DNA from: Psammoneis japonica
Taxonomy: Eukaryota
Reading direction: 5' to 3'
Assembly (NCBI GenBank): GCA_008632985.1
Contig: QPGO01000034.1
Span: forward strand, 511,311 to 575,310
DNA: 64,000 bases
The notes below the pieces were generated by a model. It was not told the DNA's origin. It did not search any database and worked only from the letters and a program-made list of their open reading frames with translations. A program made the translations under genes and the position numbers. Shown one piece after another: positions 1 through 64,000 of this stretch (position 1 is the stretch's first letter; each line of letters starts with the position of its first letter).

Positions 1-1311
1 TTGCTCCCCGCAAATGCATTGAGCGCATGGTTGACAACTGCACGTGGCTCTTTGGGGAGAAGCCCTGCACTGATGTGCTTTCACCCCTTGACAAGGGAGA
101 CCACCCTGAGCTTGACACTTCCTAATTACTCAAACTGGATGGCATCCACCCACTCCAATCCTTGATTGGTTCCCTGCAATGGGCCGCATCCCTTGGTCAC
201 ATTGACATCACTGCAGCTGTCATGTCTCTGTCTAGCTTGCATGCAGTGCCCCGCCAGGGCCGCCCAGACCGTGCCAAACGTGTCTGCAGATTCCTCTCCA
301 AGATGTGTCATGGTGCCCTTTGATTGCTCACCAAGGAGCCCAAATGTTCAGACCTTCCCAAGCCCGTGTGTGACTGGGCCCAGTCTGTGCATGGGGAGGT
401 AGAAGAGCTGCTCCCGCAAGATGCACCTGAGCCACTTGGCAAGTTCGTCACCACAACACACTGCGTCAATGCAAACTTGTTCCATTGCATGCTCACTGGA
501 TGCTCTGTCACCGGCATCCTCCATTTCCTCAACAAGTTTCTGGCTGATTGGTTCTCTAAGAAACAAGCAACAGTCAAGACTGCCATGTGTGGATCCGACA
601 AGTTTGTTGCCGCAAGGACGTGCATTGAGCAGATCATTGACCTGCGCATCACTTTACGTTGCCTTGGCATCCCCATTTGCAAAACATGTTGCATGTTTGG
701 GGACAACAAGTTGGTTGTGGACAGTGCTGCCATCCTGCACTCCAAGCCACACAAGCAACACACTGCCCTCTCATTCCATCATGTGTGTGAGGCAACTGCC
801 TCCAGTTTCCTTGAGTTTCATTTCATCAAAAGTTCCCACAACCCAGCTGACATCCTCAGCAAGCATTGGGGTCACTCCCAAGTCTGGAGCCTCCATCCTC
901 TAATGTTTTGGAACTTCGATCCCAAGGCTTTCAACCAATCTGACCTCAAATCTGTTGCTGTTGACCCCTCAAGCAAACTGGGGAGTGTCAGGATTTGAAC
1001 AAGATTTCAGTTCATCACACACAATTACATGCATGCTCTTAGTTCCGCGCGGGTCACGTGATGCAGTTTGCTTTCAAGCCACTCAGCTCACAAGAACAAT
1101 GACAGCAGTGCCGACATCACAACACCAGTCTTTTGGCTCCTGCAACAGTCTCTGCATGGAGACTCATCTGCCATTTGGACAGCAGCAAGGAGTTGTTGTT
1201 TTCTTCCACCCAGTCATCTTCAATTTCTGTCACATGACAGTCGTGAGACCTGTTTGTTCTTTGTGATGTCAGAAAAGAGCTCTGATGCATGTTGCTGAAA
1301 GATCCCTGACA
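1..1311 (+). mobile_element. Ty1/Copia (diatom CoDi-type) LTR retrotransposon, 3' part: decayed RT C-terminus/RNase H, polypurine tract and 3' LTR; truncated by the window start
   Basis: ORF 324-998 keeps Copia RNase H motifs (DWFSKKQATV-T...GS.FVAAR, MFGDNK.VV, NPADILSKHW). Purine tract GGGGAG at 980-985 directly precedes the LTR start TGTCAGG at 986. Confidence 0.92.
986..1311 (+). repeat. Copia 3' LTR (~326 bp) with inverted termini TGTCAGG...CCTGACA
   Basis: TG...CA ends with a 7-bp inverted repeat, immediately after the PPT. Confidence 0.8.
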
Positions 1312-2820
1312 ACTCAACATTCAGCACAAACATGAAGTGAGAGAGCCTCAAGACCCACACACATCAATTGTGCTGAAAGAACAACAAATTTGGAAGAGCA
1401 TGTTGTCAATGCAACCCATCCCAGTGCTGCATGGCTTGAGCCCATCAAAAACAGAAGTTGCTGAATGATTGCTGGCTGTGTTTCCTTGAGTTAAAGGCCT
1501 GGTGCAATTGCCAATGACCAAGACACCAAGCAAAATGAGCCTGCACCCAGTGCATCTCCAAGCAGCAGTGCAAAGTTTTGCATTTAGGACAGACAAACTC
1601 ATGTGGTGGTTGGCAAGCAACAAGACATCACTGTGCGTTGACCCACACTTGAGATGGGATGCTGCTGATTTGCATCAATTGATGGTGTCAACATGGACAA
1701 AAGACACAATGTGGTTGGAGACATGCTGTGTGTGGAGATTGAGAAACTTCAGCCAGTGTGGGTGGGATTGTGGAAGCAAAGACACTGCACCACCATGAAA
1801 AAGTTTTGTGACAAGAAAGAATTTTGTGACAAGACAGCAAGGCACTGGACATGCAGTTGGTGCCAAGGTGTGTGTCCACTGCCACACCAATGTTCCCCAC
1901 ACACATGATGACAAGAGTGTCATGGACAAAGCTGAGCTGTGCAGAATGAATGTGCACAAGACCAGCAAGTGCTGGCGTGTTTTTGGTTTGTGAATGCCAA
2001 ACTGCAGGGCAAGATGTTGTGTTGCCAAAACCACAAGAAAGATGACAAGTTTGAGAAGAGCTTGCTGGACCAGTGGGTTGCTGGATCTAGGAACAGGAAT
2101 CTTCAACTTGCACTGGACAGATGAGATGTTCTCATGCTGATGGACACGTCAAGAGCCAGCTGTCCTGCACATGGCATGGACAACAATGGGGTCTGTGGCC
2201 CACTTGTGAAGCTCAGTTTGAAAGACAATGAGTGTGACAAGGTCCATCATGGACTGGCTTGAGACAAGAGTTGGCTTGTCTTCAAAATGTGCACAAGCTG
2301 GCACTGTTTTTATTTTTGTTGCAACATCATCAAGGCAGGGTCCCACACAAAGTGGACTGGCGCAAAGATGGAGCTCTTTGTGTCAGATCCTGAGGTGGTT
2401 GACGGTTGGAGAGCATGGGTTGATTGGTTGGCCCTTGCAAGAGAAGCTCAGTGGAACAGAGTGTTGCTGTGCCTGCATTGCCAAGTTCATGGAGTGTGCT
2501 CAAGTTGTTGCAGATGCACTCAATGAGATGTTGGATTTTCCCAAAATGAAAGACAACAACAAGAACCAAGAAAGATGGCCAGCCGCGCTCTCGCTCCTCT
2601 CAGCACACAATCGTCGTGCTTTTCATCAGCATCACCAACTCCAGTCTTTCACTGTGGCACTCTGACCAGCACAAAATGCAGCACGACACAACAACTGATG
2701 AACAAAAAAGATCACTGCGCTTCACACATGATGGATGCAGGCAACCATCAAAGGCCAAAGGCAGTGAATCATCTTCTCACAGGTTTGAGAACAGGCATTG
2801 AGCATGCGATCTAAGCCACA
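1312..2820. mobile_element. Unidentified decayed repeat-derived sequence (probable host of the Copia insertion)
   Basis: Same TpA/CpG depletion as the Copia, with fragmented Cys/His-rich + strand ORFs. Composition returns to normal at ~2820. No family recognised. Confidence 0.5.
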
Positions 2821-39369: not shown

Positions 39370-41200
39370 GGCTTGATCTAGCAATTGTGCAGGGATGGAT
39401 CATCAGCACCGTCTTCCCATGAAGGATGTCTGGCACCACTCTGAAATTAATGATGGGATTCGCGAGCCTCATGGGCAAATGTGGGTTGCCCTCACTGTCG
39501 TGACGACTCGTGACACTCATTCTTGCATTGACAAAACTGCACAATTCCAAGTGTGGCTTTTGCCATTTGTCAGCCAGTCATGCTGCCATCATTCGCAGGG
39601 TTGCCTTGGCCTCTTTGTCAAGCAGTCCATTGTTTCGTGATGCCATGAAAGCAGAAGGTGTGAAATGATGATGTTGCTCAAGGCATGGCTTGAGACACAT
39701 GCATTTTTTCTTTTTCTTTGTGGTCCAGTGGAACAATTTCTGGAGTTTCCTGGACAAGTGTGACTTGACATCCGTGTCAGCTGCTCTGAGGACATCCATG
39801 ATGGCATCAGCCATTCTTTCCCACACACCACAGACTGAGATGTCTCTGCATGATGGTTGCCATCTCTCAACTTGCATGAGTTTGTGGCCACACTCAGCAA
39901 ACCATGAGATTGATTCTTTTTGGCATTTGGACTTGCTGATGCAGGGGTTGATGACAGGGATGATGAGCTCCAAGGAAAGCTTCATTGCCTTGATCAATGT
40001 GGTCATTGAGCTTCTCACGAATCTCATCTTGTCATGAGATGCTGAGGAGCAGCCCACCCTTCTTGAATTGAAGGGCATGATGGGTGGAAAACTTGTGTCC
40101 ACACCCACCCCAGCACTTTGGCAGAACAGGGGGGTGCAACTGCACTGCAGTCAGCGATCATTGTGCAAAGAAGTTGAAATTGACCACTGAGTCAAAAGTC
40201 TCCCCATGAAGGGCAAGCAAATTCAATCTTCATGAACCCTTGTTGTCACTCTTTGCAACCACCCTTTCATGAGTTGGCCCATCTACAATTCACTGCAACT
40301 GAACATTTTGACATCTTTGCAAAGCTCTTGACAAGGGAATTCAGCACCATTCAGCACCAACAGGTGTGATGATCACCATGGCCATGTGCCAGTCTTGGTG
40401 CTGCTGAGCTTCCCAGCACAGCTCAGGCCATCACTTTGGACAAAGTTTTGAGAGAGCTGTTTTGAGTGTTTCCTTGTGCACTTGCACTTTCCTCAGCCAT
40501 TTCTCACCTCACTTCTCAAATCATGTTCTTGCAGCTGGCTAAGGCAAACTTTTTGTGTGTGCAGCCATCCAGAGTGATTTGATCTTGCAAGAGTGTGAGC
40601 ACTCACTTTGGTGCAGCTGGTGTGCACAGCAAGCTCCATCAGATGAGGAATGGACAGCACTGCAGACTTTTTTCAACAAGGCCATTCTCAGGCTGTCATC
40701 TGCCAGAGGGTTTTGCTGATCAGTGCAGGAAGAAATTGACATTTTGCTTTGACTGCATCTTCTGCTTTCTCAAACAATTTGTCACAGGCCTTGGCTGCTG
40801 CATGCATTGTGAGTGCTGCCACTCATGCTGAAGGGACTTTTGAAAACCAGCACAAGCAGTTTGCAGGTGCCAGTGAGTCAACATTTTGGCAAGCCTGCCA
40901 ACCCTCAAGGACTGTGCCTTGGGTGTTTCAACTGTGCACTGCTGCTGGTCTTGTGCTCCTGTTGCTCACACCAACATGATGCCTCTTCCTGGCTGGGGGC
41001 ATCTGTTGGGACAAAAAGAACATTTTTGTTGGAGTTGTGGGCAGGGCAGCACTCATGCTTGGGACCTTGGTCTTGGGATTTCATGACTTGCTGGCTGGCC
41101 ACACTTGGTTCTTGCCAATCCCCAACTCACCACATGGGCTGCAAACACATTTCCATTGCTGCACCAACCATTGCCATGTGTCAACTGGGTGCAAAAGCTG
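39370..41200 (-). mobile_element. Decayed CRE-clade non-LTR retrotransposon (RT C-terminus/thumb + restriction-like endonuclease)
   Basis: Minus-strand fragments: QGPKHECCP..NKNVL (cf. GP.YGY.P..KS.L), HLQTACAGFQKSLQHEWQH (cf. YPQTAYAG.QKSLQ.EWQ), KTGTW..LNGAE, DISVCGVWERMADAIMDV..DTDVKSH, CLEQHHHFTP, GLLDKEAKATL..LADKWQKPH..FVNARMS, IVRATHIC. Confidence 0.82.
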
Positions 41201-44200
41201 GAAAGTGAGCACAAAAACCACTGCTCACAGGAGTTCTTGTGAGTGAAAATTCACCATGTCATCAACAATCATCAATGCATCCTTCACTGCAATGTTGTCT
41301 GTCCTGCAAAGTCTGTCTTGTGGCACCCCAATGTTCCAACACACTCCTTTGCATGAGCCATCAATTGATTGACCATGCCGCCCAATGCCACTTTGACCTC
41401 TCCACCAATTCCCGTGGCACTCATCATCATCTGGTTCCACCAATGAACAATGACCATCATCATTGAGCAAAGGACAGTCTTTTTTGAATTGCCCAACCTT
41501 TTTGCATTTCCAGCATTGGATCTGCTTCTTCCTTTTTGCACAAAGCTTGTGCTCTCTGGTTTCCTCTGTGCAGGTCTTTCACTTTCTACCTCAGATTCAT
41601 GGCGCCACACCCCCTCTGCATGTTTTTCTGTGCAAGCTCTGGTGCAGATGTCACCTTTCTCTGATGGTGCAATGATGGTTCCCACCTGCCTGTTCAGACC
41701 ATTCTTTCTTCTGATGATGTGCCTTTGTTCCAAGATCATTGGCAATCTCATGCAGCAGAGATTGTTTGGTGTTGACCCCCTTTGGTCATTTGCTTGTCAC
41801 TCTTCTTGGCATTTTTCCGTCTTGTGTGCAAAATTTCTGCACAAATTTCAGTGCTGGAAACTCTGCATGTCCAGCAAGCCATTTCAGATGGACAACTTGC
41901 CAAACTGTCAACTGCTCTCTCTCCACACCTCTCAAGTGTTGAAGACCCCCCTTCCACCTGTTGTCAATTTAAGCTCCATGCTTCATGCAGTGAACAATCT
42001 TCTGTCATTGCTGCTCTCAGAAATTTGAATTTGAGACCAACTCAGTGCACATTGTCCTTTCCTTCTGTGTGCGGACCATTTCTCACAAGTTTCAGCAAAC
42101 TTTCTGTGTGTCTTGAAGGTCATTTCTCAGATGATCAACTTGCCAAACTGTCAACTGCTCTTGGTCCATGCCTCTCTGGTGTCTGTGACTCCCCTTCCAC
42201 CCATTGTCTGTTTGAGTTCTCTGCCCCATGTGGCAAACAGTCCTCTGTTGTTGCTGCTGCTGTGAGTTTGAATTCAAGACTGGCTCAGCATGAGTTGGTG
42301 GCCAATTTGTGCTCTGCTCTTTCTCATGTTGCAACCATTTCTAGACTGCCAGTTTTGCCTTTGCCACCAGATCCAGTCCCAAGGAGAAGACGTGATTGCA
42401 GTGTCAAGTGCTTTGATCTTGAAGTCTCATTTTGTTGGCCCTGCATTTGTTGCTTCCAGCTGTTTCTGGTGGGTGCCACAGCCTTGTGGCATCAATCTTG
42501 ACCAGCTGTTGTGCACCCCTGCTGCATCACATGATGTGATGTTCTGGGGCAGTGTGGGTTGGCTTGTTGCTGGAGCTGCAGGGTGGAAGTGCAGCAGCAC
42601 TTTAAATGCAGAATTTGGGTTTTGTTTTAACTGTGCAGGTTTTTCAAGACATGCCAACATTCCTTGGTGCCTTCCATTGGCAGTGCCGCTGACAACATGT
42701 TTCTTTCTTCCTTCCTTCTGGGTGTCACCAGCATCCTTCCTGGCCTGAACCAATTTTCTTTCTTGGCAATTTCTTCTAGGATGAGACTGCTGCACCAGGA
42801 CCCTTTTGCCACATTGGCAATGCTCATGAGCCAATCACAACAATCTTGAAGCCCTCTCCTTCATTTGGACAAATGAGCACCAACTGAGTCCAAGTGTCAA
42901 CTGCCTGGACATGTGCGCAAGCAGATGATTCTCTCTCACTTGCACCAAACAGGGTTGACTTGAAAATTTCCAATGGCGCCACCATGCCCCACTCCTTTGG
43001 GATGCTCTTGAGCTCTGTCACTCCTCCCTCAGGCTTTGTGATGGACAGATTTTGTGCACTGTCCCATGATTGTGTCAAACACCTTTGCCTTCTGCATTTT
43101 GTGGATCATGCCCTGTTTCACACAGTGTTGTGCTGTTTCTCCCAGACAGCCTTGTCCTTCTTCTCTGATGCAATGTCACCCCAATGGATGTCCTGGCTCC
43201 TCCAGTTTGTTCTCCTGCTCCAGAGACACCAGCACCTGCATCTCCAGCCTGAACATTCTCTTTTGTTTTTCTCATGGTCTTTGTGCAACCAACTGCTTGG
43301 TGACCCAACTCTGCAATGGCGCCATGCACCTGCTCCTTTGCTTGGATCTTCTGTGCTCTTTGCTTGGCTGTGTCCCATTGCCCACATTGTCCCAGCCCAA
43401 CACAACCTTGCCTCACCCTCTTTGCCTCAATGACATGGTCAACTTGCATTCACAACTCATGTTCAGTTGTGAGTCTTGGCTGTGCTCACTTTTCAGCTTC
43501 TGCACTCAGCCAACATGCATCAGAGAGGCAAAAAGGCTGCACAAATCACAGGCCATGTTCCCCTGCCTTCAAGTGGTGTGCACACTGCTTCACTTGTTGC
43601 GTTGACCCACCACTGACTGAATTTCACAGTTGTTTGTTGGTGTCTCGCCTTCTTTGTTTGTTTGCATGTGTCCTTGTTTGTCCTTTGCTCAATTGTTGTC
43701 CCACATCCAGAACGTGTCATTTTCCACATTCTGACTTTAACTCAACAATCAACAAGCCTGGCCAGCATGTGTTTGTGCATTTCCCAGCAACTGCACCAGT
43801 TTTCTTCTTGCTTCACTTGCGTTCAGTGACATTTCCAATGCCCGATTGAAACATGTGCATTGAAACATGTGCACTTGATGCAATCATGTTGTTTGTTGAC
43901 ACAATGTGTTGTGGTGGCAGCAAGAACAGCAATGCAATCACAAACGCACACTGTGCATTGAGTGAACCAACTTGCATTGAAAAAACTTCATCCGTTCTGT
44001 AACATTTCTGCAGGAATTTCACTGCATCAACTGTTGTTCACTGTGTCTGGACCAAAGTTGACAGGGGGGGATTTGTGCAGCCTTCATGGCACCTTTTTGT
44101 TGCAACAATGTGGCCAATTGCATCACCTCCACTTCTTCATCCCACCCAAGACAAGCCGGTTGACTCCACTGATGAGATGGTTCTGAAAACAGCAACAGCA

Positions 44201-47200
44201 GCATTCTTGATGCTCCATTGTGTGATGACCCAAGTGTGAGTGCTGCTGTTGGCATGCCATTAACATCTGTGGAGAAAGTGTGCATCCGTGCACTGTGGGT
44301 GCTCCCTTGAGCACTCTCTTGCTCATGCAGACATCAACAACAAAGAGGAAGAATCATCTGACTTCTTCTGGAGTGGTGCTGATGGTGGCACTGAAGTGTC
44401 CTCTGGTGATGACATGCACTCCATTGGTTCAGCAGATTCTGGCAGCACAGAACTGCTGCTGGAGGTCATTCCTCTTGCAAACAATGAGTTTGTCAAAGGT
44501 TTGCATGATGAGAGTGCCCATGCTGATGATGATGATGACAACAATGATGATGATGCCACCAAAACCAAGTCAGTCACTCCCAGAAAAACCAGTGCAGTGA
44601 AAAGATGCAGTGCGCCACTGCTGACTCTTTTTGCATTTCCCGGTTGTTTGTTGAGTTGCCAATCTCCTTTTTTCTTTTTTTGCAAGTCATCAAGATGGAT
44701 GGCTGTGTGACTGTGCTCACAAGTGGCAATTGTCAATGTTGCATTGCCAAACATTGATCTAAGAGGACAATGGAAATGCAACAGGCAAGGAAGGCCTCCC
44801 TTCCCAGTCTCAATTGGAGGCCCACCCCTTTCTTTCTGGCACTGCCTTGTTTGTGGTGCAATTCTAAGAATGGATTGTGTCACTTTTTTGAGCAAGCAAC
44901 CACTGTCAATGATGTCACATTTTTGTCACATGCTGCAGTGAGTTCTGCTTCCACCACTCATCTTTGTGCTGTCTTCCTGCTTTCAACATCCAACCCATGC
45001 ACCTGGTTGTTGTGCTCTTCCCACAATTCCCACCATCATTTCCAAATGGAGGATTCGATCTGCACAGTCCAGTCTGGGGGTGTTTGTTTTCTCCTTGACA
45101 CTGGTGCAGGAGTCCTGAGTCGTGGAGACATCTGGGCTGGAGCAAGTTCCACAGAGTGGAGAAGCAATGCTGAAATTTGATGCCACCCCATGTCTGTCTG
45201 AGCCTTCCACAAAGCTCAACATCTGCAATCAACATCCTCTTGACAAGCCACTTCATCATTGAACCATGTTTACAATGAAGAAAGCAAGAAGTCCCAAAGA
45301 CATGGCATCACATCAAGTTGATCACAATGCTTTTGGAGGCATTGTAAAGATTTGTGGCACAGACTCAGAGCTTTGCCATGTCCACAGTGGAGACTCCTCT
45401 TTTCCTCCCTTGCATTGAGTTCAAAAAAGGCAACACCCACCACTGGTGCAAATTGGTCTTTTCTCAATGCTCAAAACCAAAGATGTTTTTGTGGTTGCAG
45501 CAAAAAATCTTCTGCAAGACATCGGCACCAGCACAAAAGTTCAATCCGGCAACATGGTGAAGAACATGCTTAAGACAGGCCTGGGCACCATCAGGGACAT
45601 TGTCTCTGACAAGGCCCGTGGTGAAAAAAGCTGCCCATTGTTCTGAGCTTGTGGAAGAGCAAATGTGCAATGCATTTTCAAGGACATGCAAGAATCTCAA
45701 CCACCAGAAAATGAAGAATTTGGCAATCATCTGCTTGAGGGTTCATGACTTGATGTGCCGGCACCTCAAGCCAAAACAGAAAAAGAAAAGTTCACCTTTT
45801 CCACAAAAGTCCCATTTTTCCATGTGGGGCAGTCTGCCTGGGAATGGTCAGAAGAAGAACGGTTCTGGATCTGCCAAAGGCCAGTCTTTTGTCCAACCCT
45901 GCCAGTCCCTGACTTGAACTCCATTTCAAACTGTGCTGCACTGTTGTTGTTGTCATTGTTGTTGTTGTTGTTGTTGTTTGAAATGAGGATCCCTTGTGCC
46001 CTCCAAAAGAAAGAAGGATGTGGAACAGCCATCCCATCAACACTCTCATTGTCCCTCCACAGCCATCCCAACACCCCCCTCCTCATGCAACTTGTGCAGG
46101 ACCTGGATGGCAACAGTGGCAACATCTCCATTGCTGATGGCAAGTGCACCCCTGGAATCTGAGTTCATTGCTGAACAATGACCCCCATCTCCATTGCTTT
46201 GGAGGACTGGGAAACTCATTTCCCACAAGAGTGCCAACATGTCCCACCCCCGGCTTGCAAAAAATTGCCAAGGTCGCTCCTTGCATTCACGCATTTTGCA
46301 ATGGGGTCAACAAAGATGGCAACATCAACAAGGACAAGTTCAACCATGAGCTCATTCTGCATCACTCCCCATTGGATTTCTGCCTGCTCATGGACCTCTG
46401 CATTTCAACACATTCATTTGAGTCAGAGAGGCCACTTCTCAATCCAATGTTGCACTCTTGTGAGTTGAGCACTGTCCCTTCCCAAGCAACCAAGATCTCA
46501 GCCAGTCAAACCACACTCCATTCCAATGGCAAGCTGTTTGAAAAGCATTTTTCTGGGCTCAAAGTCCACTTTGGTGCACTGACCTGTTTTGTTTTGGAGC
46601 ATGGCACCAGCAATGAGAGGCATGACAAAAAATGTCCTGGAGGGCCGATGCACAATTGTTGAGTCAACTTGGTTGCAGTGGACAGAATTGTGTTGTTGGA
46701 GCCAATGGCAAAGCAGAGCTGGCACCACATCTCCTTTGCATGGCTTGCTTCAACAAATTCAAAATGAATGATGAGGAAGAATTTTCCCTCCAAGTGAAGG
46801 CCATGTCAGCTGATGCATTCAATTGCACACAGCTCTGCCAGGATGAGTGGCACATTGAATGTTTTGATTTGCCAACTTCTTGCAACAACAACAAGGAGCA
46901 GACACATAAAGTTTGGCCAACAAGTGCAGGAGGAACTTGGTGCTGAATGTGCTGGGAACAAGAATTGCATGATCCAGCTGAAGAACATGAGCCAAGGTGG
47001 CAGGACATGTGAGCATGAGGGCAACCAGGACTGCATTGGATGTCTCAGCTTGTTTGGGATGGACAAGGTTGGAGACTTTTGAAAATGTTGTCCAACAGCC
47101 ACCATGGCAAGGCAGGAAATTGCTGCATCAGCAAATTTGGAATGAGAGACCTCAAGGCAAAGGTTGGTGTTTTTGCTTGTGCCATTGACCACAACTGCAC

Positions 47201-50200
47201 CAGGTTCACAGGGAGTGCTCTGGTCCACTTTGTTTCTGCAAGGGTGATCTGTCCCATTGTCACCAAGAAAAGTTCTTCCTTGATGTGGAGTCTTTGGCTT
47301 TCTCTGGTCAAGACCCTGCTTGTGCACAACATTCATGATGACTTGGGTGTTTGTGGTTGTATGCAGCTGGCAATCATGGCAAGTTGTCAGACTGGCTTCA
47401 ACTGGCTCTTCTACATGGCCACCAGGAACTTGGACAAGCTGCGCGGAGCTTCAGACACTGCCACACTCATTTGTTTCCACAACGCCATTGAACTTTTTGG
47501 AAGAGCTGCTGGGGACATTGGAGCAACCCCTCATCACATGAACCCAAGTGGGCACAATTTCATCAATGTGCACTGCAATGATGCAAACAACAATGACAGT
47601 GGGGATGATGAAAGTGTTGGATCTGCTGCCAAGGACAGTGGCAAGAAGCACCACCACACCTGCACCAATGAATCCAGCTGCAATCCTCTTGGAAAGAGGC
47701 AATGCATCAAATCACCAAATGAGATGATTGCCAATGGTCAGTGTCAAGGGGTGAACTCAAAAATTTGGTTGTGAACCTGAGAATCAACAACATGACATTG
47801 GACGTCATTGCCCTGCCAGAGTGGATTGTGCAAAAACAGGCACTCAAGTGCAAAACTTCTGTCACACTCTCTTGCACCAGTTGAAGAAAACATCTGTGCA
47901 AAATGTTTGCTGGCTGGTCTTGTGAAACCAACATCACCAAGTTCCAGTGATGACAATTCTGCAAATGCTTGCCAGATGTGGCACAATCATTCTGGGACAC
48001 AAAGAAGATCTGTGGGACTCAGTTTGTCTGGCAACAAACCTTGGTGCTGCAAAGCAACTTGCTCACCTGATGAACAATTAAAGGGTGGAAGCATTGGAGA
48101 TCATTGTGCAAAATTTTGGAGCTGCCTGTCACAGCAACAACTGCAAGGAGTGTGTCACCTGTGACAGCCACAGAGACAGAATCAAAGATTTGACAAAGAA
48201 ACATTTGTCAAGAATCAACATCTCTTCTCTCCCTCATTGGTGCAGATGGCATTGCTGGCATTTAAAAACATGGGATGTGACACTGGGAGAAGACACCAAC
48301 TCTGCCAGAAAAGCCTGTGCCGATGAATCTTGGGCAGACAAGAAAGTTGATGTTGCTGCCAATTCAATTGACAACAAAGACAAAAACCGACAGCACCAAT
48401 GTTGAGGCTGGTGGGATTGGGGACACTCCCTCAGATGATTTCATTTTTGACAGTGCTTTGACACAGGAAAAAGGAGGAGACCAAATGGATGCAAGCAATG
48501 ACAAGGCACTGATTTGCTGATCTGCCAACCAAAGACACCATTGTCAACATCCCCCCCCCCCCCCAGGAGGTGCAAATTTGACAGTGAGTTGGATGGAGCA
48601 AATGAAGCAATCCTTTGAAAACCTTCCAGGATCAAGGTCAAGAAGGTGCTTTTCTTGTGCATGACACAGACCAAAGACATTGACGTTGCACCACAATGTG
48701 CTGGATGGTGCCAATGATCATTTTTTGTTTTGTCATGACACCAAGCTGCAATCCAGCGCAACTGGGCTGCCAGCATGGCAGCAATTGTTGTGCAACTGTG
48801 GCCACTCCAGGCACAAAGATTGCAAATTTTGCACAGCATCTCTCAGCAATGGACATAAAGAACAACACCTGAGCTGCAACAAGTGTGGCCCCAACTTTCT
48901 AAATCAAATGCTGAGCAAGTTTGGAGGCAATTTTGTGGAAATCAACATGGACTTTTTCTGGTTGCAAAAGGGCTGGTTGAGCAATCAACTCAGAAAAAGC
49001 TTCTCTTCAGCAAGATGACACCAGATCCAGGGGTCGCAATGAAAAAGAAGATGGAGCCTTCTTTGTGCCTTTTAACATTGAGACATTTGCTGGTTGCACC
49101 AAACACAAAAACACAATGCAGTTCTTCATTTTGTCACCCCCACAACTGGAAACAAAAGTTTTGCTTCACAAGCCACGCTGTTGCAGTTGCTTGGATGAAT
49201 GGTTGTGTCACAAGAAACTGGGGCTGGACTGCCAATGCCAGGTGGAGAAGCACCTCACTGATGTCTTGCACCAGGAAATCAGGGAGTTCACCACAGAACA
49301 CATGTGTTCTTGGGCTGTTGAAGTGTGGGCTGGACCAAGGAGCAAGCCCCAGCAGGTCAACATTTGTCAACAAATTTTCTTAGGAAGAGGCAACACATGT
49401 GACAACAGTCATTGGTGTCTTTGCCAGCCAGAGACCAAAATGAGCAATCTGACCATTTGGTGAGATTCCTGGGTGCTGTCCCTGACAGGAACAGACAAAA
49501 CTTGGCCGTGACGGCATGACAAACAACAGTGTCACTCAAATGGGTCAAAACACCAAGAGTGCAGTGACGCACATCAAGGTCAACTTCCACTGTGCATTGC
49601 TGTGTTTCTGTTGCACATTTTCCCAAACTTTTTCCCAAATGAAGTTCCTTGTTCACCATGTTGGACAATGTGGATTTTCCTCTGAGGTTTCCTGACAAGC
49701 AAGACAATTGCACTCTTGCCCAGCTGATGGATGCAAGGCAAAAACTGCAGGAGGGTGAGTGGCACATCTGCCCAGCTGCTGAGAGCATCACATTTGCCAC
49801 CTCAGCAACTTTGGAACAACTCAAGATAAAATTGACACTCTTTTGCCCCATGAGGGAAACTGGCTGCATTGGTTGCCATCATGTTGAACAGAACCAACAA
49901 ATGTGCAATCACTGCGTTGGGCTGGCAGACCAACTGGGACACCACATTTGGGGAAGTTTCCCAATGTGCAAGCCATCACAACTTGTTGCTGCCAGTGCTT
50001 CATCAATGCCCACTTTTTTTGAGAAAGCAGAAGGATGGTGCATGGAGCTTGACATCAAAGACACTCCTTTTCAAGGAGAGGATGGACCCATGCACTTTCA
50101 AAGCCAAGGCCCCTTCAACATTGTTGACATGCCAACAGCTGACAAGAAGCTGCAACAAAAGAACAGATTGATGGCAAAGAGAAGCAATCTGAACATTGCT

Positions 50201-50600
50201 TGCAAAGGCCCTCATTGTCAACTGCACTCAGTTGATGTGTGGTGACTTGTGTGCTGCTTGGCTGTGTCCAGAGATGCACAACCAGCTGCAAGTTGTTGAC
50301 AACTTGCCACCAATCATGCAAAAAAAATCATCCATGATTTCCTTGAGGTTGTGGCAGTGCCTGCATCAATTCCAACTGACAAAAATCATTGACAATTTGC
50401 TGCCAATCATTCCTGAAGGAAAACATGGTGTGTTGGGGCCCAGTTTGTGTTTGTCAGCACAAGAAGCAAGACACACAGAAACCTCTGCTGAGTGATGCAA
50501 AACGGCCCAGCTCCATGTCAAACTCACAGTTCTTTACATGTTGTGTGGGAGCCACCTTGTCCCTGCCCAAAAGCTGCACTTGTGTCCTTTGCCATTGGAC
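41200..50600. pseudogene. Series of decayed transposon-cargo-like coding remnants (mostly + strand), families not securely identified
   Basis: Extreme TpA/CpG loss. Residual protein-like frames at 41782-42501, 44288-44620, 46144-47774 and 49065-50245. Confidence 0.5.
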
Positions 50601-50619
50601 TCGCCTGTCTGTTGTGCTG

Positions 50620-53100
50620 TCATCTCTCTTGCCCACTTGACAAAGACCTCAGCCCACTTGATTTGGGGGGCAAACTGCCATGACTGTGTGCTCTTTCCTT
50701 CCATTGGGTGGGAACATCCAAGAGGGGACAGGGTCTGAGCAATGTTTCATCTGAAACACAGAGGGCCACTCTTTGTGCAGGAGATGGCAATGTGATGCAT
50801 CGACAGATTGCCATTGCTCTGAAATTCTTGTTGGCAATGTGTGAACAGCCCAGTGTCTTCATGGGTTGACTGACAGCTGCAAGCTTGCAATCAACAGAGT
50901 GAACAATGGCCTTCACATCACCAGTCTCCTCCTTGCAAATTCCAGTGGCTCTTGCCGGGTGCATGTCTTGTTGGAGTTGCCGTCCATGTCAAAGTTGACT
51001 GCAGCCCAATCACACCGGGTGATTGAAAAGTGTGTGCAGCTGGGCATGATTTTTCCCAGTGTTGCTGTCAATGGCAGAGTTGCCACAACAAATTGTGGTG
51101 TCCATGCATGACACAACTCTCTTTGTTCCAAAAACAAGGGCTTTGTTGTCAAGCTGCATTTCCTCTTGGGAAGAAGCAGACAGGAACAGCGACAATGCAT
51201 GTGACAATGAAGAGCACATTCAAAAGGAAGCAAAGCTGGGCATTTTGGAAAGCATCAAGCCAGCACACCCATCACCCCTTCATCAGTTTTTTTTCACTGG
51301 GCAGGAAAACTGACATGGGTTGTTGAGGTCTTGCACAACATTGGCAGATTCGGGTGTGGGTGACTCCACTTTTTTCTTTGCCATGGTCTTTCTCAACCTG
51401 TCATGGACACACTTCTCAATGTTGGTCTCAACCTCTTTGCAAAGCAGGCCTTGGCACCTGTCCTGTGGGGCGAGACATGCAAGGGATTTGATGCATTCAT
51501 GGGAGGAGCATGAGATGGATTGCTTGCCATTGATGGCCTTCAGAATCTTTCACCACAATTCAACAAACAGCTGGTCCATCTGGAAATCATCAAAGTCGTC
51601 TTGCAACAAAAAGCCAAAGCCATGCAACTGGAGGTTCTTGAAGACAAGTTGGATTGCAGAAGGTTTTTGGTCAAATGCATCACTTTTGTGTCATGGTCTG
51701 TGGTGCAGGCAAATCTTTCTTTGAAGGGAAAGGCACTGGGTGGCAAGGCTGCTTTTTTTTTTTGTAGAAGATTCCTCAGGTGCTCCACCATTGGGAGTGT
51801 TGGATGGTCTTTTCCTTTTCTGTCTGCACCAAGCAGAAGCTGTTTGATGGGACTGCTTTTTCCCAGAGGTTGTGTTGCCCGATTGGCTGCCATTGGACCC
51901 TGCACAAGGAGAGAGCACATTGGCTGACATTGCCCACCCAAGTTTGCCATCCTTCTCCTGGGTGAGTGTTTCTGAAGATGCTTCAAATCCTTCAACAAAA
52001 AAAAGTGTGTCATGGTGTGCCTGCATGTTGGTGGACAAATCATGTGGTGCTGCATCATCCTTGAGGGAGTCGCCATTTCATTGGTGCAACCAAACAAACC
52101 ACCTCCACATCTGTGCTTGGCATGAAACCCAAATGACACCAGAAGAAAGAGTGTTCACGAGCTTTCCTCTTCACAATGAGGGTGCAGAACAGCCAGGGTT
52201 CAAGTGGATGTTGTTGACAGGAATTGGTTCCTGTCTGGTCTGTGCACAAGCCTGTTGGAAGAAGGAGGTCCTTCTCTGGATCAAAATCTTTGGGGAGATT
52301 GTTGCAAGTGTCTGTTTCTCTGAGGCCACAGTCATCTGTGGGAACAAACTTGTGGAGCTGTTCCTGCATTGATTTGTTGACATTGAGATTGTGATGGTCT
52401 TTGAAAAGGGAGCAAGCAAGCAATTCCCTCAACATGTCCTTCATTTGGAAACGAGCCACTTGGTGCCCACAAATGATGCATGTGTCTGGCTTTGGCATGT
52501 GCACCTTCTTGTGAAGGCTCCTCACCAACTTTTGTGCCAAAAAGCTTTGGATGCATCAAATTCACTCTTCTTGTAGAGCCATCACAGCAGGGTGAGCAGT
52601 GAATCATAAAACCCTCCAGCAGCACCAGAGTTGTCACACAGTGTGATCAGCTGAAGAGAAGCTTCCTCAGCCAACAAAAAGCTGCACCCAAGCAGAGAGG
52701 ATGACTGTTCCTTGCCAACATCAGAGGCCTCCACTGGCAAAACATCATCTTCATTGATGTCACATTTGTGGGTGGAGTTGGTGCTGGGAAACATCTCAAA
52801 AAGAGACAGGTTGTGCCCTTGTTGTCTTCATTGGAGTGAGAATGTTGGCATCATTGGAGTCATCATCTTGTTCATCAGATGCACCACTCTTGAAATCAAA
52901 GTTGGCAGCAGCAAACTTGACATTGCGTCCCGCCATTGCACCAGGCAGGGGATGAAAGGGAGGGAAGAGCTGAAGTGCCGGTGGGGGAACTGATGCTGGA
53001 GAGATGTGTTGACAGTGTTTCCAGAGGTGCCAGCAGAGTTTGAGCAAGATTGGCAGGAGGATGACAGGAAGGGCTCCTTGTCCCATTGATGATGAGCAAG
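50620..53100 (-). mobile_element. Decayed, rearranged Plavaka-type (CMC/CACTA-related) transposase gene
   Basis: N-part LQLITLCDNSGAAGGFYDSLL; core DLLLPTGLCTDQTG..QQHPLEPWLFC..RKAREHSFFWCHLGFMP (cf. LPI.LY.D.T..YPLEP..W..LG.IP); C-part RCDWAAVNF..HPAR..AIVH. An unrelated fragment interrupts at ~51300-51900. Confidence 0.72.
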
Positions 53101-53559
53101 CAACACAGTGGCTTGGGACAGTGTGCCTGGATCACTGGCTGCAACATTGACACAACTGATTTGGTTTTGGGCTTGTGGCAGAAATGGCGGGCATGAACCA
53201 TGTGCAAGGATCAAATTGCAGGGGGGGGAACCAAGATTGATGCAAACAAAGGGAAATTTGTTGGAAGCAAGCAAACTGATTGATTTCAAATTGGACTGTT
53301 GAGCAAGCACGGGTGCTGATTGAGAAAGCACATGTCTCAAAGCTGGACAGACACAAATGCCAGAGAAAATGGAATTTGAAAATTTTGGACATTGAGGCAT
53401 TGTTCAGTCACAAGCAATTGCGTTGTTTTTGAAACTCAGGTGAGTGAATTCAAATTGCATTGGCAAACATCAGAGAATGCATGAAATCAATGACAGCCAA
53501 ATGCTCAAATCAGAAAATTTGCAAATGCAGAAATTCCAGCTTGCAATGGCAAACAGCCA

Positions 53560-55035
53560 GGCAACAATGCATGCATGACCTGTGCTGCTGAGAGGAGCAC
53601 TGGGAAAACAAACCACACAAAAAATGGCATGGAGACATGGCAACCATGGTGCCCCCAGAGGCAGCAGATCAATCCAGCCATTTGGATGAACAATGACAAG
53701 AAGGTGGGCAGAGACATGGTCAAGGTGAAAGACCATGTCAAAGAAAAGGTGTTTCTCAGTGTCACAATTGTGTTTGATGCAAGGCAGCCAGAGGAAACTG
53801 GCATGCTGTGCAGAGACTGTACCCAGAATTGTGCACCAATGCTGATGGATGGAATGCTTGTGGAGCTTCCAGAGGCTGAACAGAAAACACACCCAAATGA
53901 AACAAAACAGGTTGCAGCCACCAGAGTTGGCAGGCAATGAAGCAATCCAATGCATGTCAGGCCCAGCAAGACAGATTTCACAGCAAGTTCTGTTGCTGAG
54001 GATTGTTGTGAATGAGGAAAAAACAAACCAACATTGGCGTTGTGTTGTTGCTGACAATGCAGTGCTTTGTGCATGCTGCAGCAAGAACAATTGCATGTTG
54101 TCTTTGCCAGAACATTTCCAGGTCAACAGTCAAATCCACCATTGCACGGACAGCACTCTGCAGCCACTTGTTGCAACCGGTCATGGGAGAAATTTGTTGG
54201 AAGAAGAGCCTCTCCGAAAACACAAGGTTGGGCACATTGTGTGCCAAGGCATTTGCCCACATGCTCTAGAAATTTTTTTGTTGCGTGGCTTGCAGTGCAG
54301 CACAAGAGCAAGAACAAGGACACAGCTGTTTGATGACAGACTGCAATGTGGGGGGTCAATGACCAAGAAAACCCCACTGGAGGAAGGGAAGACTTGTGTG
54401 AAATTCTGATGCTGCCAGATGTTGCCATTGCCAAGCCAGAGGATGCAAACAGATCAAGCACATTTTTGAAATTTTTGAAAAAGACCCTGAAGAGCCCACA
54501 GAGCAAGGAATGCACAAGGAGACAGCAAACAAGTCTAAGGAGGTGTGGGAGAAGTCCCTCAAGAGCTGCAATGAATGCATCAAGAAGGTGAGAACAGAGC
54601 AAATGACACACAGGAGCAGCCAGTTTTGATGGAGGTCATGACCAAGCTGGAAAGCAACAAAAACCTGCCAGACAAAAGGAGCATGGGGTGCTGAGAAGAG
54701 AAAGTGCATGAGACGCCCAAAGTGCTTCATCGCAAGAGACTCCAAGAATGGAGCTGAAGAAGGTGCATCCAGGAGATGACACAAGGTGCCTGGGAAGTGC
54801 AAAGGATGGTTGCTGAGGGCAAACAAGTTCTTTGAGCAGCTGGTGAGGGAAATGAAACAAGACATTGCAAGCAAACAATTGGGCCAATGGGAAGATTTGC
54901 ACAAGAAGACAGTGGCTGAGCACAAAGAGAAAGAGGAGGAAAAGAATGATGAGTCAGGGGACAAAAGCAACTGCATGGTGAGCTGTGCCAAGACACATGA
55001 ACTGGAGGAGTTGATGCGAGTTTGGCAGAGATGAC
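53560..55035 (+). pseudogene. Decayed accessory gene divergent from the Plavaka transposase
   Basis: Fragments VKDHVKEKVF, LLQPVMGEICWKK..AKAFAH..NFFVAWL (cf. EAFA..LEN..W), KCKGWLLRANKFFEQLV (cf. GWS..F..L). I recall these motifs from diatom TE-linked hypothetical proteins. Confidence 0.55.
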
Positions 55036-56091
55036 AAAAAAGCAGCACCCACATTGTCACAAATGACATTGCATGCAAAGTGCACAAAGCAGCACCCACA
55101 TTGTTGCAAACAAATGATGCTGCAAAGTGAGCCCAAACTGTCAAACTAAATTCGAGCATGCTGCTGCCAAATGGCAATTTGGGAAACCAGTCAACCAGTC
55201 AACTGCAACTGGGTTGCAACAAACATGTTGGTTTGCACATCATTGATGTGAACCCACGGACATTTGTTGGAGGTGCAGGACATCCATTTGTTTGGGCCTA
55301 GGACAAATCTGACTGATTCAGTCACAAATAAATTGATGTGCTTGCACTCACACATGTTGGGGCAGACTGAGGCATTGTCGTCCGCAGATGGGGCAGCGGC
55401 AACGGCAATGGCGGCAATTGTGGAGAGGAGGTGTGTTGGCCTTTGCAGCCCATGTGGTGTGGCAAGTTCAGTGATCAGTGAGACCAAGCATGTGCAAGCT
55501 GGTGAGCCATGAAATCTTAACACAGAAGCTAAAAAGGCTGGCTGGGAAGTCATCAAGAGTCCAAAGGTGCAGCTCGAGTCAGACAGTGGATTGCAGCAAA
55601 CAAGCTGCTGGCTCGATGAAGGCAAAGAAACAGTCTCTGCGGCTGTGAGGAAACTGTTGAGGGTCTGCTGAAGTGGGGAGTCGAGCATTGGTCCCAGTCC
55701 GTGTGCCACCATGCCTCTGGTGGATCGCCTTGAACGACATCTTCCTTGCTGCTCCTAAAAAGGGAAGCGACCGTTCCGAAGCGTCATGTCATTTTACTGC
55801 ATGCCGTGAAAGAAAAGGTGGCAACGACACTAATAAACATGCATAGCTTACAGACTTGAATATAAGTTTATATTGGGTCATCTCAGTTTCGTGACTGTTC
55901 GTTTGGCCGTCGTCGCGTGGATGTGCGAGAGCACGGGTGAGGGAGTGAGGGAACGGACAACACACGCAATTTCACCACAACCCAGCCACAACACACAGCG
56001 TGAGAAGGGTGCTGTTGTTGAAGTGAGTCACGTCGTTTCAACCTATTAAGAGACTTTCGTTTCAAAGCCTTTGCCTTGATTACTGTGCATC

Positions 56092-59838: not shown

Positions 59839-59917
59839 AAAATGCCAGGTTCTAGCCCAAAAAATGCCAGGTTAAACCTGCAGAAAATGCCAGGTTCTAG
59901 CCCAAAAAATGCCAGGT
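59839..59917 (+). repeat. Four copies of AAAATGCCAGGT at 22-23 bp period in a divergent promoter
   Basis: Copies at 59839, 59861, 59884 and 59906; spacers TCTAGCCCAA / TAAACCTGCAG / TCTAGCCCAA. Confidence 0.9.
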
Positions 59918-60105
59918 GAAACGTTCGCAACACCGTTCGTCGTCACGCAACGTTACCCCCTTGCAGCGACAATAGCGCGCTTTCGCACGCCCTCCGTTGG
60001 ACGTATTATCGTTAGGCGCTCGAACTGTGAATCCAAGACATTTATTTCATTTGAGGAGGCGGGAAGCAAGGCAGACTGGATGTGCTGGGAGCGACCGACA
60101 ATGTC

Positions 60106-61110: not shown

Positions 61111-61502
61111 GTTTGTCTGGGGTGTACTACCGGTAGGAAGAGATGAATAGCTGAAAAGCAACCCAAAGCCTCCATGTTTGGATGGCCAGCGACTGCCGTT
61201 GCGAATAGGACCCGTTAACGAAAAATAATAACGCGGTGTAACGCTTTGTGCTTTGTTGATGGAACATATTGCCTACCGGTACCATATAATTTATCGGCAT
61301 TATCAAGACACTACCGGTATCTCGGGGTTGTAGTTTGAAGGTTCTGTACAACAGAGCTTTCCTCCACTACTACCTCCTCGTAGTATTCGATACTGCCGAT
61401 CTGATGCAAAATAAAATGATAAAACATGATTTAGAGTAGACTGAACGATTTATCTCTTTTCGTCGTGAAATTGCCAGATGATTAAGTGTTTGATCACCTC
61501 CT

Positions 61503-62034
61503 TTACTCGTCTTCTTCCTCCTCCTCCTCGTCTTCATCCTCCTCTTCATCCTCGTCATCTTCATCATCGTCGTCGTCTACTTTGAACTTTGTCCAGTCTA
61601 CTGAATCGTATGTCTTGCCGCGGTTGATTGAATTCCAAATTGCATCACCGCCATACCCAGTAACACCTTCAGCGACAACAATTCCAACAACCAACCATGA
61701 TGCATAGGCGCCGGTGCTTTTACCAAATCTACAAACGAAGAGAAACAAATCGATTTATTAGGTTCGAATGAGCATCATAGAAAGCAAAGGCAACAGACTG
61801 ACAAAGCGTGGAAGTACATTCGAGACACTAACAAGAGCAACACGGCCGAGAACACCCGCCGTAGATTGCAGTACGAAAGCTACGCAGAAGTAACAGACGT
61901 ACAGGAACAACTTACAGGTTGTACCAACTCCGAAGAACGTTCGGTGGAATAGCTCCTGCTGTACTCTGTTGACGAGAACCCGCCACAGCGGCTCTCTGAA
62001 GGCCAGAACGAACAACCGACGCTCTGAATATCAT
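61503..62034 (-). CDS. QCR9: Cytochrome bc1 complex subunit 9 (QCR9/UQCR10); intron 61729-61915
   Basis: [43 protein letters not shown] matches the QCR9 pattern (Y..F..S.Y..E..D.IW..N.GK.W/Y). Confidence 0.82.
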
Positions 62035-62309
62035 GGTGACGCCCAACGAACGGCAGGTGAAAATGGCGAAAGAGAAGGCGACACGCGACGCACGCACGCA
62101 CGGACGGATACACGTACAGTAGTACGTACGTTACGTACGTACTGTACATACAGCGACGGACGGACGGATCAAGGGATTATGGCATGTAGTACAGTGCTTG
62201 TACTCGCTCTCTACTCTCTAGGCCCTAAAGCTAAAGCAGTAATCCCTTGGACGAATGAAGGAAAGATCATCTAGCCCTGTCGCATCAGGTATGCTCTACT
62301 CTCGCTAGC

Positions 62310-62906
62310 TAGAGAGTAGAGTAGAGAGAGAGAGAGAGAGAGCAGCACCAGCTGTTGTGCTGTGAGCTCTCTCTTGTCACATTTGACGGCAAATTGGCTT
62401 CGCCAATTTTGATCGTTCGTTTCATCCGCCTGGAGTGCTCACCGGCCTTGTCATGGGCATGCTCTTTCGCTTCAAAAACCTCTGCTCCGACACTGATGAT
62501 GCCAAAGCAAAAATGAGACTGCTCTGCCTTCGACTTCAAGCTCGAGGCTGCAAGCCCAGCAAACTACAACCGCTCTTCCACAAGGCACATGACCGCATCT
62601 TTGGCAATGCCACCGGAACAATCCAAGCACCTCAGTCGAACCCCATCTTTCTGCACATCCCCTGTCATCCGAATGATCCGCCATCAAGTGAACTGCAGCA
62701 AATTTGGAAAGGTGCCATGGCCACCCCTCCCCACTCACAACCCCTCTCAAACCTTCGAAATCACGCTCGACAACGCATCGGCCTTGACCGCATGATTGTC
62801 TGTCACAGCCGCTCACACAACCTCGGAAACCTTCTGTCTTATCGCAAACTTTGCATCTCCCATGGCCCCCCAGTTTCGTCCTACCGGATTACAAATAGGG
62901 AGGCCC

Positions 62907-62941
<35 letters not shown>

Positions 62942-63235
62942 GGTGATTTGAATTAATCAATCGAGTCAACTCGCCTGTCCTCCACCACTCGGATTTTTTA
63001 ACGCAACAACCTCAACCACGTCAACAACAACAGCCGGCCGCTGATGAAGCCACCGCGAAAGTCTCATTCTCCTGACTTCGGCCAACGTTGTTGTGCCTGC
63101 TATTTACCGAAATAGTTGGATAAATATCCGATTAAGTAGCTCTACCTTAGCTACTTGTATTCTTTGTTTGTCACATTTGACGGAGAATCGGCTGCGCCGA
63201 TTCGTTCGTTCGTTCGAGAGAGAGAGAGAGAGCAG
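62310..63235 (+). mobile_element. 5'-truncated Penelope-like retroelement (RT thumb/C-terminus, 3' region with hammerhead) embedded in (GA)n/TAG microsatellite
   Basis: HPPGVLTGLVMG..R..LCSD..RLQARGC..L.PLF.KA, FLHIPCHPNDP.S..Q.W, MIVCHSRSHNLGNLLSYRK (PLE thumb). A ~45-bp direct repeat at 62374 and 63168; (GA)n at ~62325, ~62910 and ~63217. Confidence 0.8.
63025..63093 (+). ncRNA. Type I hammerhead ribozyme motif
   Basis: Stem I GGCCG(63036-40)/CGGCC(63079-83), extended by CAACAAC/GTTGTTG. Core CTGATGA(63041-47); short stem II GC-CACC-GC; GAAA(63057-60); stem III GTC/GAC; cleavage triplet CUU. Confidence 0.8.
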
Positions 63236-63251
63236 CTCTCTCCAATGGCAG

Positions 63252-63678
63252 CTGTGCCGCCCCCCGCGCGGCGACATGAACTGAGAAACAGCTGGATCCG
63301 CCTCTATTCTCCAATAGAGTGGGGCCTATACTAGAGTAGAGAGTAGAGTAGCTAGCTAGAGCTACTTCTACTAGCTAGTGCAGACAAACAGAAGTAGATC
63401 TCTGGCTAGCTCAGCCACACACGGCAGCTGCAGAGCTGATCTAGAGTAGAGAGAGAGAGAGAGTAGCTCTCTCTCTCCCTAGTAGTTCCTGTGCCGACGC
63501 CCCCCGCGCGGCAACATGAACTGAGAAACAGCTCGATCCGCCTCTATTCTCCAATAGAGTGTGGCCTTTACTAGAGTAGAAAGTAGAATAGCTGGCTAGG
63601 GCCGCTTCTGCTGGCTAGTGCAGACAAACAGAAGTAGAACTCTAGCTAGCTCAGCTACATACGGTAGCTGCAGAGCTG
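63252..63678 (+). repeat. Two copies of a 240-bp-period CTAG/GA-rich tandem unit
   Basis: 63261-63438 aligns without gaps to 63501-63678 with 17 mismatches. Confidence 0.95.
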
Positions 63679-63751
63679 CCGAAAAAGTAGTGAACGGTTT
63701 ATTCCCTTTAATCTAGGGCATCGTAGACTCCTTAGCGTTAGCGCACTGCGT

Positions 63752-64000
63752 TCAGTCTTCCTCCACCACTCGACCATCCTTGTCGAACGCCATGTATTTC
63801 AACGGGGCAAATGTCCGTCGATGAATTGGAGATGCTCCATGCGTCCGAACTGCAGCCATGTGAAGTGCTGTAGGATAGCCCTTGTGCTTTCCAAGTTGGT
63901 ACGCTGGGTACATGATGTCGTAGTCTCGCATGAGGCGATCCCTAGTCACTTTTGCCAGGATGGACGCAGCTGCAATCGAATACTCTCTCGAATCGCCTTT
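63752..64000 (-). CDS. rnhB: Ribonuclease HII (bacterial type), C-terminal part; truncated by the window end
   Basis: [27 protein letters not shown]....HKGYPT..H..A...[11 protein letters not shown]. Confidence 0.92.

Follow-up and report, generated by a model that had tools for sequence, protein, structure and literature searches.

Loss of TpA with retention of CpG in a truncated Penelope-like element of Psammoneis japonica

A truncated remnant of a Penelope-like element (PLE) has, by comparison with its relatives, undergone real conversion of TA to TG and CA without CpG loss, and this over the whole of positions 62323-63100 of the window, as I call the entire 64-kb stretch of Psammoneis japonica DNA analysed here. 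The original prediction concerned 62401..62880 on the plus strand, where a hand count had given 2 TA and about 25 CG in 480 nt. The exact count agrees, with 2 TA (at 62565 and 62840) and 25 CG, and the corresponding dinucleotide O/E values are 0.08 and 0.82. None of 20,000 mononucleotide shuffles of this region contained 2 or fewer TA (mean 26.1, minimum 12), and the local background of 0.0406 TA per nt leads one to expect 19.5 TA per 480 nt. Among the 729 sliding 480-nt segments that lie wholly outside two large erased tracts described below, those starting at 62341 (1 TA) and 62401 (2 TA) have the fewest, and the lowest segment that does not overlap the PLE fragment has 6. The depletion at 62401-62880 far exceeds both chance and local background.

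Three more TA stand just beyond 62880, at 62882, 62890 and 62896, and the whole stretch of protein homology (62417-62896) holds 4 TA and 24 CG. Across the fragment limits used, CG O/E is 0.80-0.82 and TA O/E 0.08-0.15. The full TA-poor, CG-intact zone, 62323..63100 on the plus strand, is 778 nt long, takes in the coding remnant, a (GA)n microsatellite and a 3' UTR with a ribozyme, and contains 39 CG and 7 TA, against 31.6 TA expected at local density. The surviving TA are unevenly placed, four of the seven being clustered at 62840-62896. Non-coding sequence shares in the depletion: at 62897-63100, ribozyme included, TA O/E is 0.18 and CG O/E 0.86, and the equivalent 3' stretch in 16 relatives has TA O/E of 0.41-0.96. 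The zone is bounded by TA-rich flanks, with four TA in 62306-62322 and eleven in 63101-63158. Further out, a tandem at 63258-63678 consists of two 240-nt units, 91% identical and rich in TAG and CTAG, that keep both TA and CG, and about 160 nt upstream of the TA-free zone a palindromic block rich in ACGT and GTAC (62090-62165), itself rich in TA and CG, is likewise untouched.

The coding part of the zone (62417..62896, plus strand) is a 5'-truncated remnant of about 160 C-terminal residues of a Penelope-like reverse transcriptase (RT) of about 640 aa, and would correspond to the thumb/C-terminal domain of that family. Homologs number 708 at E<=1e-3, with the match falling at the C-termini of proteins of 600-700 aa. 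Because tblastn with 11 homologs matched 62417-62896 as the sole piece in the 64-kb window, the copy must be 5'-truncated; its reading frame shows no indels relative to the homologs in the same search. Full-length homologs (alignment A1) carry the RT-like motifs DAxSMYTNIP, GTAMG and RxIDD, read by eye, and the N-terminal motifs LLGLGLKFIP and CDKNLGP, in a region missing from the truncated window copy. GxKF/Y and DKG are among the N-terminal motifs listed for Penelope-like elements in passages of Craig et al. (2021, PMC8557442), and the homologs' LLGLGLKFIP and CDKNLGP match the GxKF and DKG criteria given there. Pfam returned no match for the fragment or for the 11 homologs, a PDB sequence profile search returned nothing relevant, and PF26215 is a precomputed database label on many homologs. 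A search of proteins clustered at 90% held no close paralog of the fragment, the best match being 51% identical. No Pfam match to a GIY-YIG endonuclease was found in the homologs of about 640 aa, whose ends directly follow the C-terminal domain; this absence fits the endonuclease-less (EN-less) PLE clades and would be compatible with PLE membership. The same passages of PMC8557442 describe the EN-less Athena/Coprina elements, which resemble the homologs in having GxKF and DK(N) motifs, no endonuclease and a downstream hammerhead, but which sit at telomeres, whereas the window copy is internal and lies beside (GA)n.

The frame was claimed to be still open, and it is: 62387..62956 on the plus strand runs for 189 codons into the (GA)n, which is read as ERERER, and homologs P0121, P0124 and P0127 likewise finish in ERERER. 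However, an open frame is weak evidence and carries little weight in TA-free sequence, since without TA only TGA can stop it; here the minus strand also has an open frame of 138 aa, and the plus strand another of 92 aa. The microsatellite itself, 62909..62941 on the plus strand at the end of the ORF, is also present in relatives L001, L002, L003, L038 and L041. A 35-nt module at the fragment's 5' junction (62374..62408, plus strand) recurs at 63168-63202 with 86% identity. Association with a microsatellite and insertion in partial tandem are PLE traits, and both are seen here in the (GA)n and in the junction module repeated 794 nt apart. The module contains an inverted repeat, AATTGGC/GCCAATT in one copy and AATCGGC/GCCGATT in the other, and its two copies differ at mirrored positions of this repeat, with CG in one and TG/CA in the other, which reflects either mirrored CpG decay or a kept hairpin.

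A type-I hammerhead ribozyme at 63036..63083 on the plus strand, about 140 nt further downstream, supplies a further PLE trait, that of a hammerhead in the flanking repeat or 3' region. It comprises stem I (GGCCG/CGGCC), preceded by a UU site, a CUGAUGA core, a 2-bp stem II, GAAA and stem III (GUC/GAC). In a scripted three-stem test, 16 of 26 CUGAUGA...GAAA cores from the window and 66 related loci passed, as against 5 of 1300 shuffled controls, and across the window and the related loci stems I and III covary. Ribozymes are borne by L001, L003, L009, L013, L014, L015, L017 and L019, and also by L038, L040, L041, L048, L049, L057 and L058; across the window copy and the loci they stand 140-380 nt downstream of the ORF and have an extra A following CUGAUGA; in most of them stem II is 2 bp long and closed by a tetraloop. 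Rfam reported no family above its gathering score anywhere in the window and, in 62300-63700, only rows at chance level (E<=10); the MAFFT alignment of the ribozyme region was mis-registered, which left RNAalifold uninformative. The homologs' C-termini, the PLE N-terminal motifs and the downstream hammerhead agree with the earlier description of the region as a Penelope-like RT fragment; judged on these sequence features, that is a fair label, the element being probably of the endonuclease-less kind.

For the family comparison, 66 metagenome loci were collected, 19 of which were dropped as partial or containing stops, leaving 47 full-length, stop-free relatives. The locus search profile was built from 9 closer sequences, an earlier alignment of 37 sequences having no sufficiently conserved stretch. 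Per 480 nt, the relatives have 15.8±4.9 TA (minimum 9.0) and 27.5±7.4 CG, and the window copy has 4 and 24, in line with the claim that TA was erased while CpG stayed intact. TG+CA amounts to 64.5±6.5 in the relatives and 83 in the window copy, the largest value among the 47 (82.0) belonging to a copy with decayed CG. Taken separately, TG is 22.4±3.7 in the relatives versus 31 (+8.6) and CA 42.1±6.5 versus 52 (+9.9), so that the window copy is down by about 12 TA and up by about 9 TG and 10 CA. The YpR total, in turn, is 107.8±3.9 in the relatives and 111 in the window copy. Since the YpR total is conserved, TA has been turned into both TG and CA, and not just avoided. The window copy is the poorest in TA among the full-length relatives compared, and the loss amounts to about three quarters of its TA, a family-level figure that assumes a family-typical ancestor for this copy. 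On these counts, the PLE family is not natively TA-poor.

The conserved tyrosines give the same picture codon by codon. The original prediction held that ARGY had become ARGC, YHP had become CHP and YSR had become HSR, and an alignment of 164 homologs bears this out. At the RGY column (62549..62551, plus strand) the window has TGC (Cys) where 77% of the homologs have Tyr; at the YHP column (62663..62665, plus strand) it has TGT (Cys) where 68% have Tyr and 27% Phe; and at the (A/C)YSR column (62804..62806, plus strand) it has CAC (His) where 86% have Tyr. The first two are TAY>TGY changes and the third TAY>CAY, each a single TA-removing transition. Cys is outside the four commonest residues in all three columns among the 164 homologs. 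Another His codon, CAC at 62732..62734 on the plus strand, can be compared with paralogous contigs from the same sample: 17 contigs read T at 62732, and T carries 1725 of 2131 in summed depth. Since the paralogs mostly have T, the C before A in the window is derived, and the paralogous T is compatible with either TA or TG. In all, the fragment shows Tyr>Cys twice and Tyr>His twice. Only 2 of its 173 residues are Tyr, the lowest fraction among 165 sequences; the family median is 4.2%, and none of the 164 homologs has a fraction as low.

These results bear on the simplest alternative, that no special process acted and that the fragment belongs to a natively TA-poor subfamily, shaped by codon usage or UpA avoidance, with its Cys and His due to ordinary divergence. 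A family consensus poor in TA with Cys or His at these sites had been named as what would speak against erasure, and at family level this is not what the homologs have. It is true that TA is low throughout the genome (O/E 0.60 even in the normal sequence of the window) and variable in the family (0.37-1.02), and that 14% of homologs naturally have His at the RGY column. However, ordinary divergence would have had to change all three conserved Tyr columns by exactly the transition that removes TA, to give the extremes of TA and Tyr content just described, and to deplete the non-coding 3' UTR as well. The probability of finding 4 or fewer TA with a mean of 15.8 is 5e-4, under a Poisson model that understates the spread. 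I consider native TA poverty very improbable.

TA loss also occurs on a far larger scale in the same window, together with CG loss. A multi-copy tract of 15.9 kb (39449..55330) contains 36 TA (O/E 0.03) and 86 CG (O/E 0.10), with CA at 1.83 and TG at 1.86, and a second tract of the same kind (234..2811) has TA O/E 0.06 and CG O/E 0.22. In the longer tract, all dinucleotides besides TA, CG, TG and CA are near normal and TG is about equal to CA; the YpR total of the tracts equals that of normal sequence, with TG and CA at about 1.85, and the loss of TA reaches 97%. Both are complex sequence, almost without internal repeats and without similarity to each other in self-BLAST. Pfam matched none of the 85 ORFs of at least 90 aa in the two tracts, and the ESM Atlas gave no usable match for one tract ORF. 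That the long tracts are mobile elements is suggested only by their paralogous contigs. Word depth is about 62 (61.7) for single-copy genes, whereas the summed depth is 126-587 over the long tract and, over the 3' part of the PLE, 725 (62010-62676) and 2195 (62677-63343); depths above the single-copy value indicate that tract and PLE are both multi-copy.

Could the two depleted steps be an artefact, with modified bases (5mC, 6mA, 5hmU) miscalled by a long-read basecaller so that CG and TA were written as TG and CA? A loss that is near total, sharply bounded and limited to the two self-complementary YpR steps is what such miscalling might look like. But strand-mixed miscalls should leave some CG and should create TA. 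Moreover, contigs from run X1, evenly covered at a word depth of about 62, match the tract over 782-4994 nt with 0-2 differences, although X1 may be the assembly's own data; noisy long reads would presumably not yield such 31-mer contigs, and many diverged paralogous contigs exist. I regard this explanation as barely credible.

Contigs from a DNA run of the same sample were also compared with 44001-64000 at 80% likeness or more. Differences between window and contigs are dominated by transitions (A>G 280, G>A 285, C>T 250, T>C 276), each transversion being seen 47-90 times. Some are reciprocal doublets, with CA in the window and TG in the paralog at 54523-4 and the reverse at 54604-5, as would be expected if the copies had resolved ancestral TA or CG independently. 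At 63066-63100, six paralogous contigs run off the window. Comparison by eye shows the consensus of their loose ends to read TG in two places against CG in the window, a hint that CpG may have been lost from other family copies.

Are TA loss and CG loss, then, two processes or one? In the PLE fragment about 25% of TA (4/15.8) and about 87% of CG (24/27.5) survive. If the two were coupled at the ratio of the long tract (k_TA/k_CG of about 1.3), about 9 CG should be left in the fragment; for a family-typical ancestor, 24 or more would be seen with a probability of about 3e-8, and coupling at the big-tract ratio is rejected for the fragment. With the fragment's CG at family level, the claim that TpA loss is independent of CpG decay thus stands. 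The converse is seen in three relatives from other diatoms (L008, L050 and L056), with CG O/E of 0.19-0.34, TA O/E of 0.37-0.66 and TG+CA O/E of 1.33-1.53; because these copies decay CG yet keep TA, TA erasure is no general by-product of methylated-element decay. At three tract borders (2501-2900, 39401-39800 and 55301-55800), it takes TA about 100 nt to go from zero to normal, whereas CG returns gradually across 300-400 nt in which TA is still missing. All CG-free gaps of at least 160 nt in the window are TA-poor (TA O/E at most 0.21), and TA-free gaps with normal CG exist, chiefly two inside the PLE fragment. The sharp steps in TA, the gradual recovery of CG and the lack of any CG-free stretch that keeps TA make the two processes separable. 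The further claim that TpA loss is the faster of the two goes too far as a general rate, the evidence for it being one copy and three tract borders, and it may simply be that the fragment, lying among genes, is unmethylated at CpG. An intergenic stretch at 20396-20955, considered as a second TA-poor, CG-keeping case, is only mildly depleted and was left uncounted.

As for those genes, a Sec1-family ORF at 56236-57672 has its best matches in transcriptomes and genomes of diatoms (52-63% identity; the nearest named species are Odontella aurita and Ditylum brightwellii), which marks the host as a diatom. Contigs of run X2, labelled 'DNA?', skip two introns in this gene, the GT..AG intervals 56206-56301 and 57668-57760, and with this splicing the run behaves as an RNA library would. 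The same run leaves the long tract uncovered. On the minus strand, an RNase HII gene (Pfam PF01351, E 7.5e-13) runs off the window end, its C-terminal part occupying 63752-64000, and the window also holds genes for a GCN2-like kinase, Coq4, a Cid1-type poly(A) polymerase and a tRNA U5-methyltransferase. ARAGORN found no tRNA in the window.

The reading I prefer, though I find belief and doubt in it evenly balanced, is a TpA-directed, strand-symmetric, element-bounded transition process on DNA that would be distinct from CpG decay. What is observed, namely a symmetric and bounded conversion that is separable from CpG loss, would be accounted for if a dead, 5'-truncated, EN-less PLE copy had lost about three quarters of its TpA after diverging from the family's working sequence, by transitions running both ways, TA>TG and TA>CA, in about equal numbers, with CpG staying at family level. 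The process would target TpA steps in mobile-element DNA on both strands and would halt sharply at element boundaries, and CpG loss would be a separate matter, namely deamination of 5mC in the interior of long methylated element islands and nowhere else. I infer that the process works on chromosomal DNA in place; it would probably be enzymatic, and the same process may have emptied the two long tracts of TA. It does not appear to be triggered simply by copy number, given that high-copy, TA-rich neighbours are untouched: the TAG-rich repeats at 62306-62322 and 63101-63158 and the 240-nt tandem at 63258-63678 all adjoin the fragment, and the tandem falls in a bin of summed depth 2195 versus 61.7 for single copy. 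The uneven spread of the surviving TA also counts against the preferred reading, and so does the fact that none of the listed contigs bridges 62311-63243, which leaves this exact copy supported only by a word share of 0.94.

The main rival is that the copy arrived already stripped, in either of two forms which together are possible but rather doubtful. In the first, which on its own I consider unlikely, deamination at UpA/TpA struck the element's RNA, its first-strand cDNA or both while it was retrotransposing, much as ADAR or APOBEC act on retroelements but aimed at adenine; the copy would have arrived stripped, and its CpG would not yet have decayed for want of time or of methylation. Such editing would explain why the TA-poor zone coincides with the element piece 62323-63100 with TA-rich sequence on both sides, and why the neighbouring TA-rich repeats are unaffected, and the intact CG and the frame without indels relative to homologs fit a young insertion. 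The symmetry is harder to reconcile with it: editing of sense RNA alone gives TA>TG, but TG and CA are equally raised, so that RNA and minus-strand cDNA would both need to be edited. In addition, a single passage would have had to remove 75-93% of sites, far more than is generally known of hyperediting, and the 97% loss and the reciprocal CA/TG doublets of the 15.9-kb tract fit repeated action better.

In the second form, TA was erased earlier in a still-transcribed copy elsewhere, which was mobilised in trans, and the fragment is its descendant, so that the decoupling from CpG would reflect history and not a local difference in rate. The paralogs give this some footing. Few high-share differences fall inside the fragment: among those listed, which are the ones with about 0.8 or more of the depth, there are only 62595 and 62732, and only the latter is of the TA kind. 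Judging from these listed differences, most TG/CA sites of the window copy would also occur in one fifth or more of the paralog depth, and such sharing would fit inheritance from an already stripped source. The very high copy number of the PLE 3' region (725 and 2195, against 61.7) likewise indicates that large subfamilies exist. On the other hand, a source in a methylated island should have lost CG too, and the fragment keeps 24 (family mean 27.5). Descent from a stripped source seems to me somewhat less likely even than editing before integration.

How does a TpA-directed process on chromosomal DNA, the preferred reading, compare with known systems? A full-text search, with most subscription journals outside its scope, found no description of TpA erasure in mobile elements of diatoms or other algae. 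To my knowledge, the known forms of element-directed hypermutation (RIP, APOBEC, 5mC decay) all act on cytosine. In animal genomes, retroelement copies edited by ADAR or APOBEC3 have become fixed, with dense, clustered transitions that are strand-specific and partial; the 5' U preferred by ADAR would lead to UA>UG. The density of transitions in such copies is as in the fragment, but here both directions are equal and loss is near complete, and the A>G change restricted to the sense strand that marks A-to-I hyperediting is not what is seen (TG +8.6, CA +9.9). Decay of CpG by 5mC deamination also yields TG and CA, is strand-symmetric, and explains the CG loss in the tracts and in L008, L050 and L056, all three of which bear its signature, but it cannot remove TA, and the fragment, with CG intact (O/E 0.80-0.82) and TA gone (0.08-0.15), lacks that signature. 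Modified bases offer another comparison. In dinoflagellate DNA, 5-hydroxymethyluracil occurs at TpA/TpC, and N6-methyladenine occurs at ApT in ciliates, green algae and early fungi. Modifications tied to one dinucleotide in this way, in some cases on repeats, could make transitions locally more frequent. However, 6mA systems mark ApT rather than TpA, and the tracts have a normal AT content of this dinucleotide (O/E 0.84 against 0.92).

RIP of ascomycetes is the closest in its general behaviour, being, like the pattern in the window, transition-only, element-bounded, near-saturating and destructive of coding capacity. The element hypermutation of basidiomycetes (TpCpG>TpTpG; PMC3318451) is likewise a transition-only, element-bounded mutation of mobile DNA. 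In its chemistry, though, RIP is the reverse of what is found here. It changes C to T at CpA and so creates TpA, whereas in the window TpA is destroyed and CpA and TpG are created, at an A:T pair. Accordingly, the signature of RIP (TpA up, CpA/TpG down) is inverted, TpA being depleted and CpA/TpG raised. Nor does its trigger by duplication apply, as the adjacent high-depth, TA-rich repeats keep their TA and CG. I would tentatively suggest, at somewhat less than even confidence, a genome-defence-like mutator that is the mirror image of RIP, seeking out mobile-element DNA and turning virtually every TpA into TpG or CpA on both strands, with sharper boundaries than the decay of methylated CpG and acting earlier than it. 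Such a mutator would probably work through base modification or deamination at the TpA step, by an adenine deaminase, by thymine hydroxylation or by another modification of T that mispairs with G. The original prediction had argued for a dedicated adenine-directed mechanism, and this part is not established: TA is self-complementary, so that A>G seen from one strand is T>C seen from its complement, and a route directed at thymine, such as a modified T mispairing with G, fits equally well. Diatoms have DNMT4 enzymes which, according to portions of Hoguin et al. (2023, PMC9998398), are related to the RIP factor RID and whose function is unknown; DNMT4 is a lead here and nothing more.

If the proposed process is real, erasure of TpA at A:T pairs that can leave CpG intact would add a new mutational specificity to those of genome defence, and it would give diatom DNA-modification enzymes of unknown function, DNMT4 for example, a concrete target for testing. 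It would also explain why element remnants escape protein-domain searches, as Tyr is turned into Cys or His, and, because the loss of TA leaves no TAA or TAG stops, why long spurious ORFs open in all frames. Finally, the survival of TA relative to that of CG, taken copy by copy, would provide a simple marker that could be applied genome-wide.
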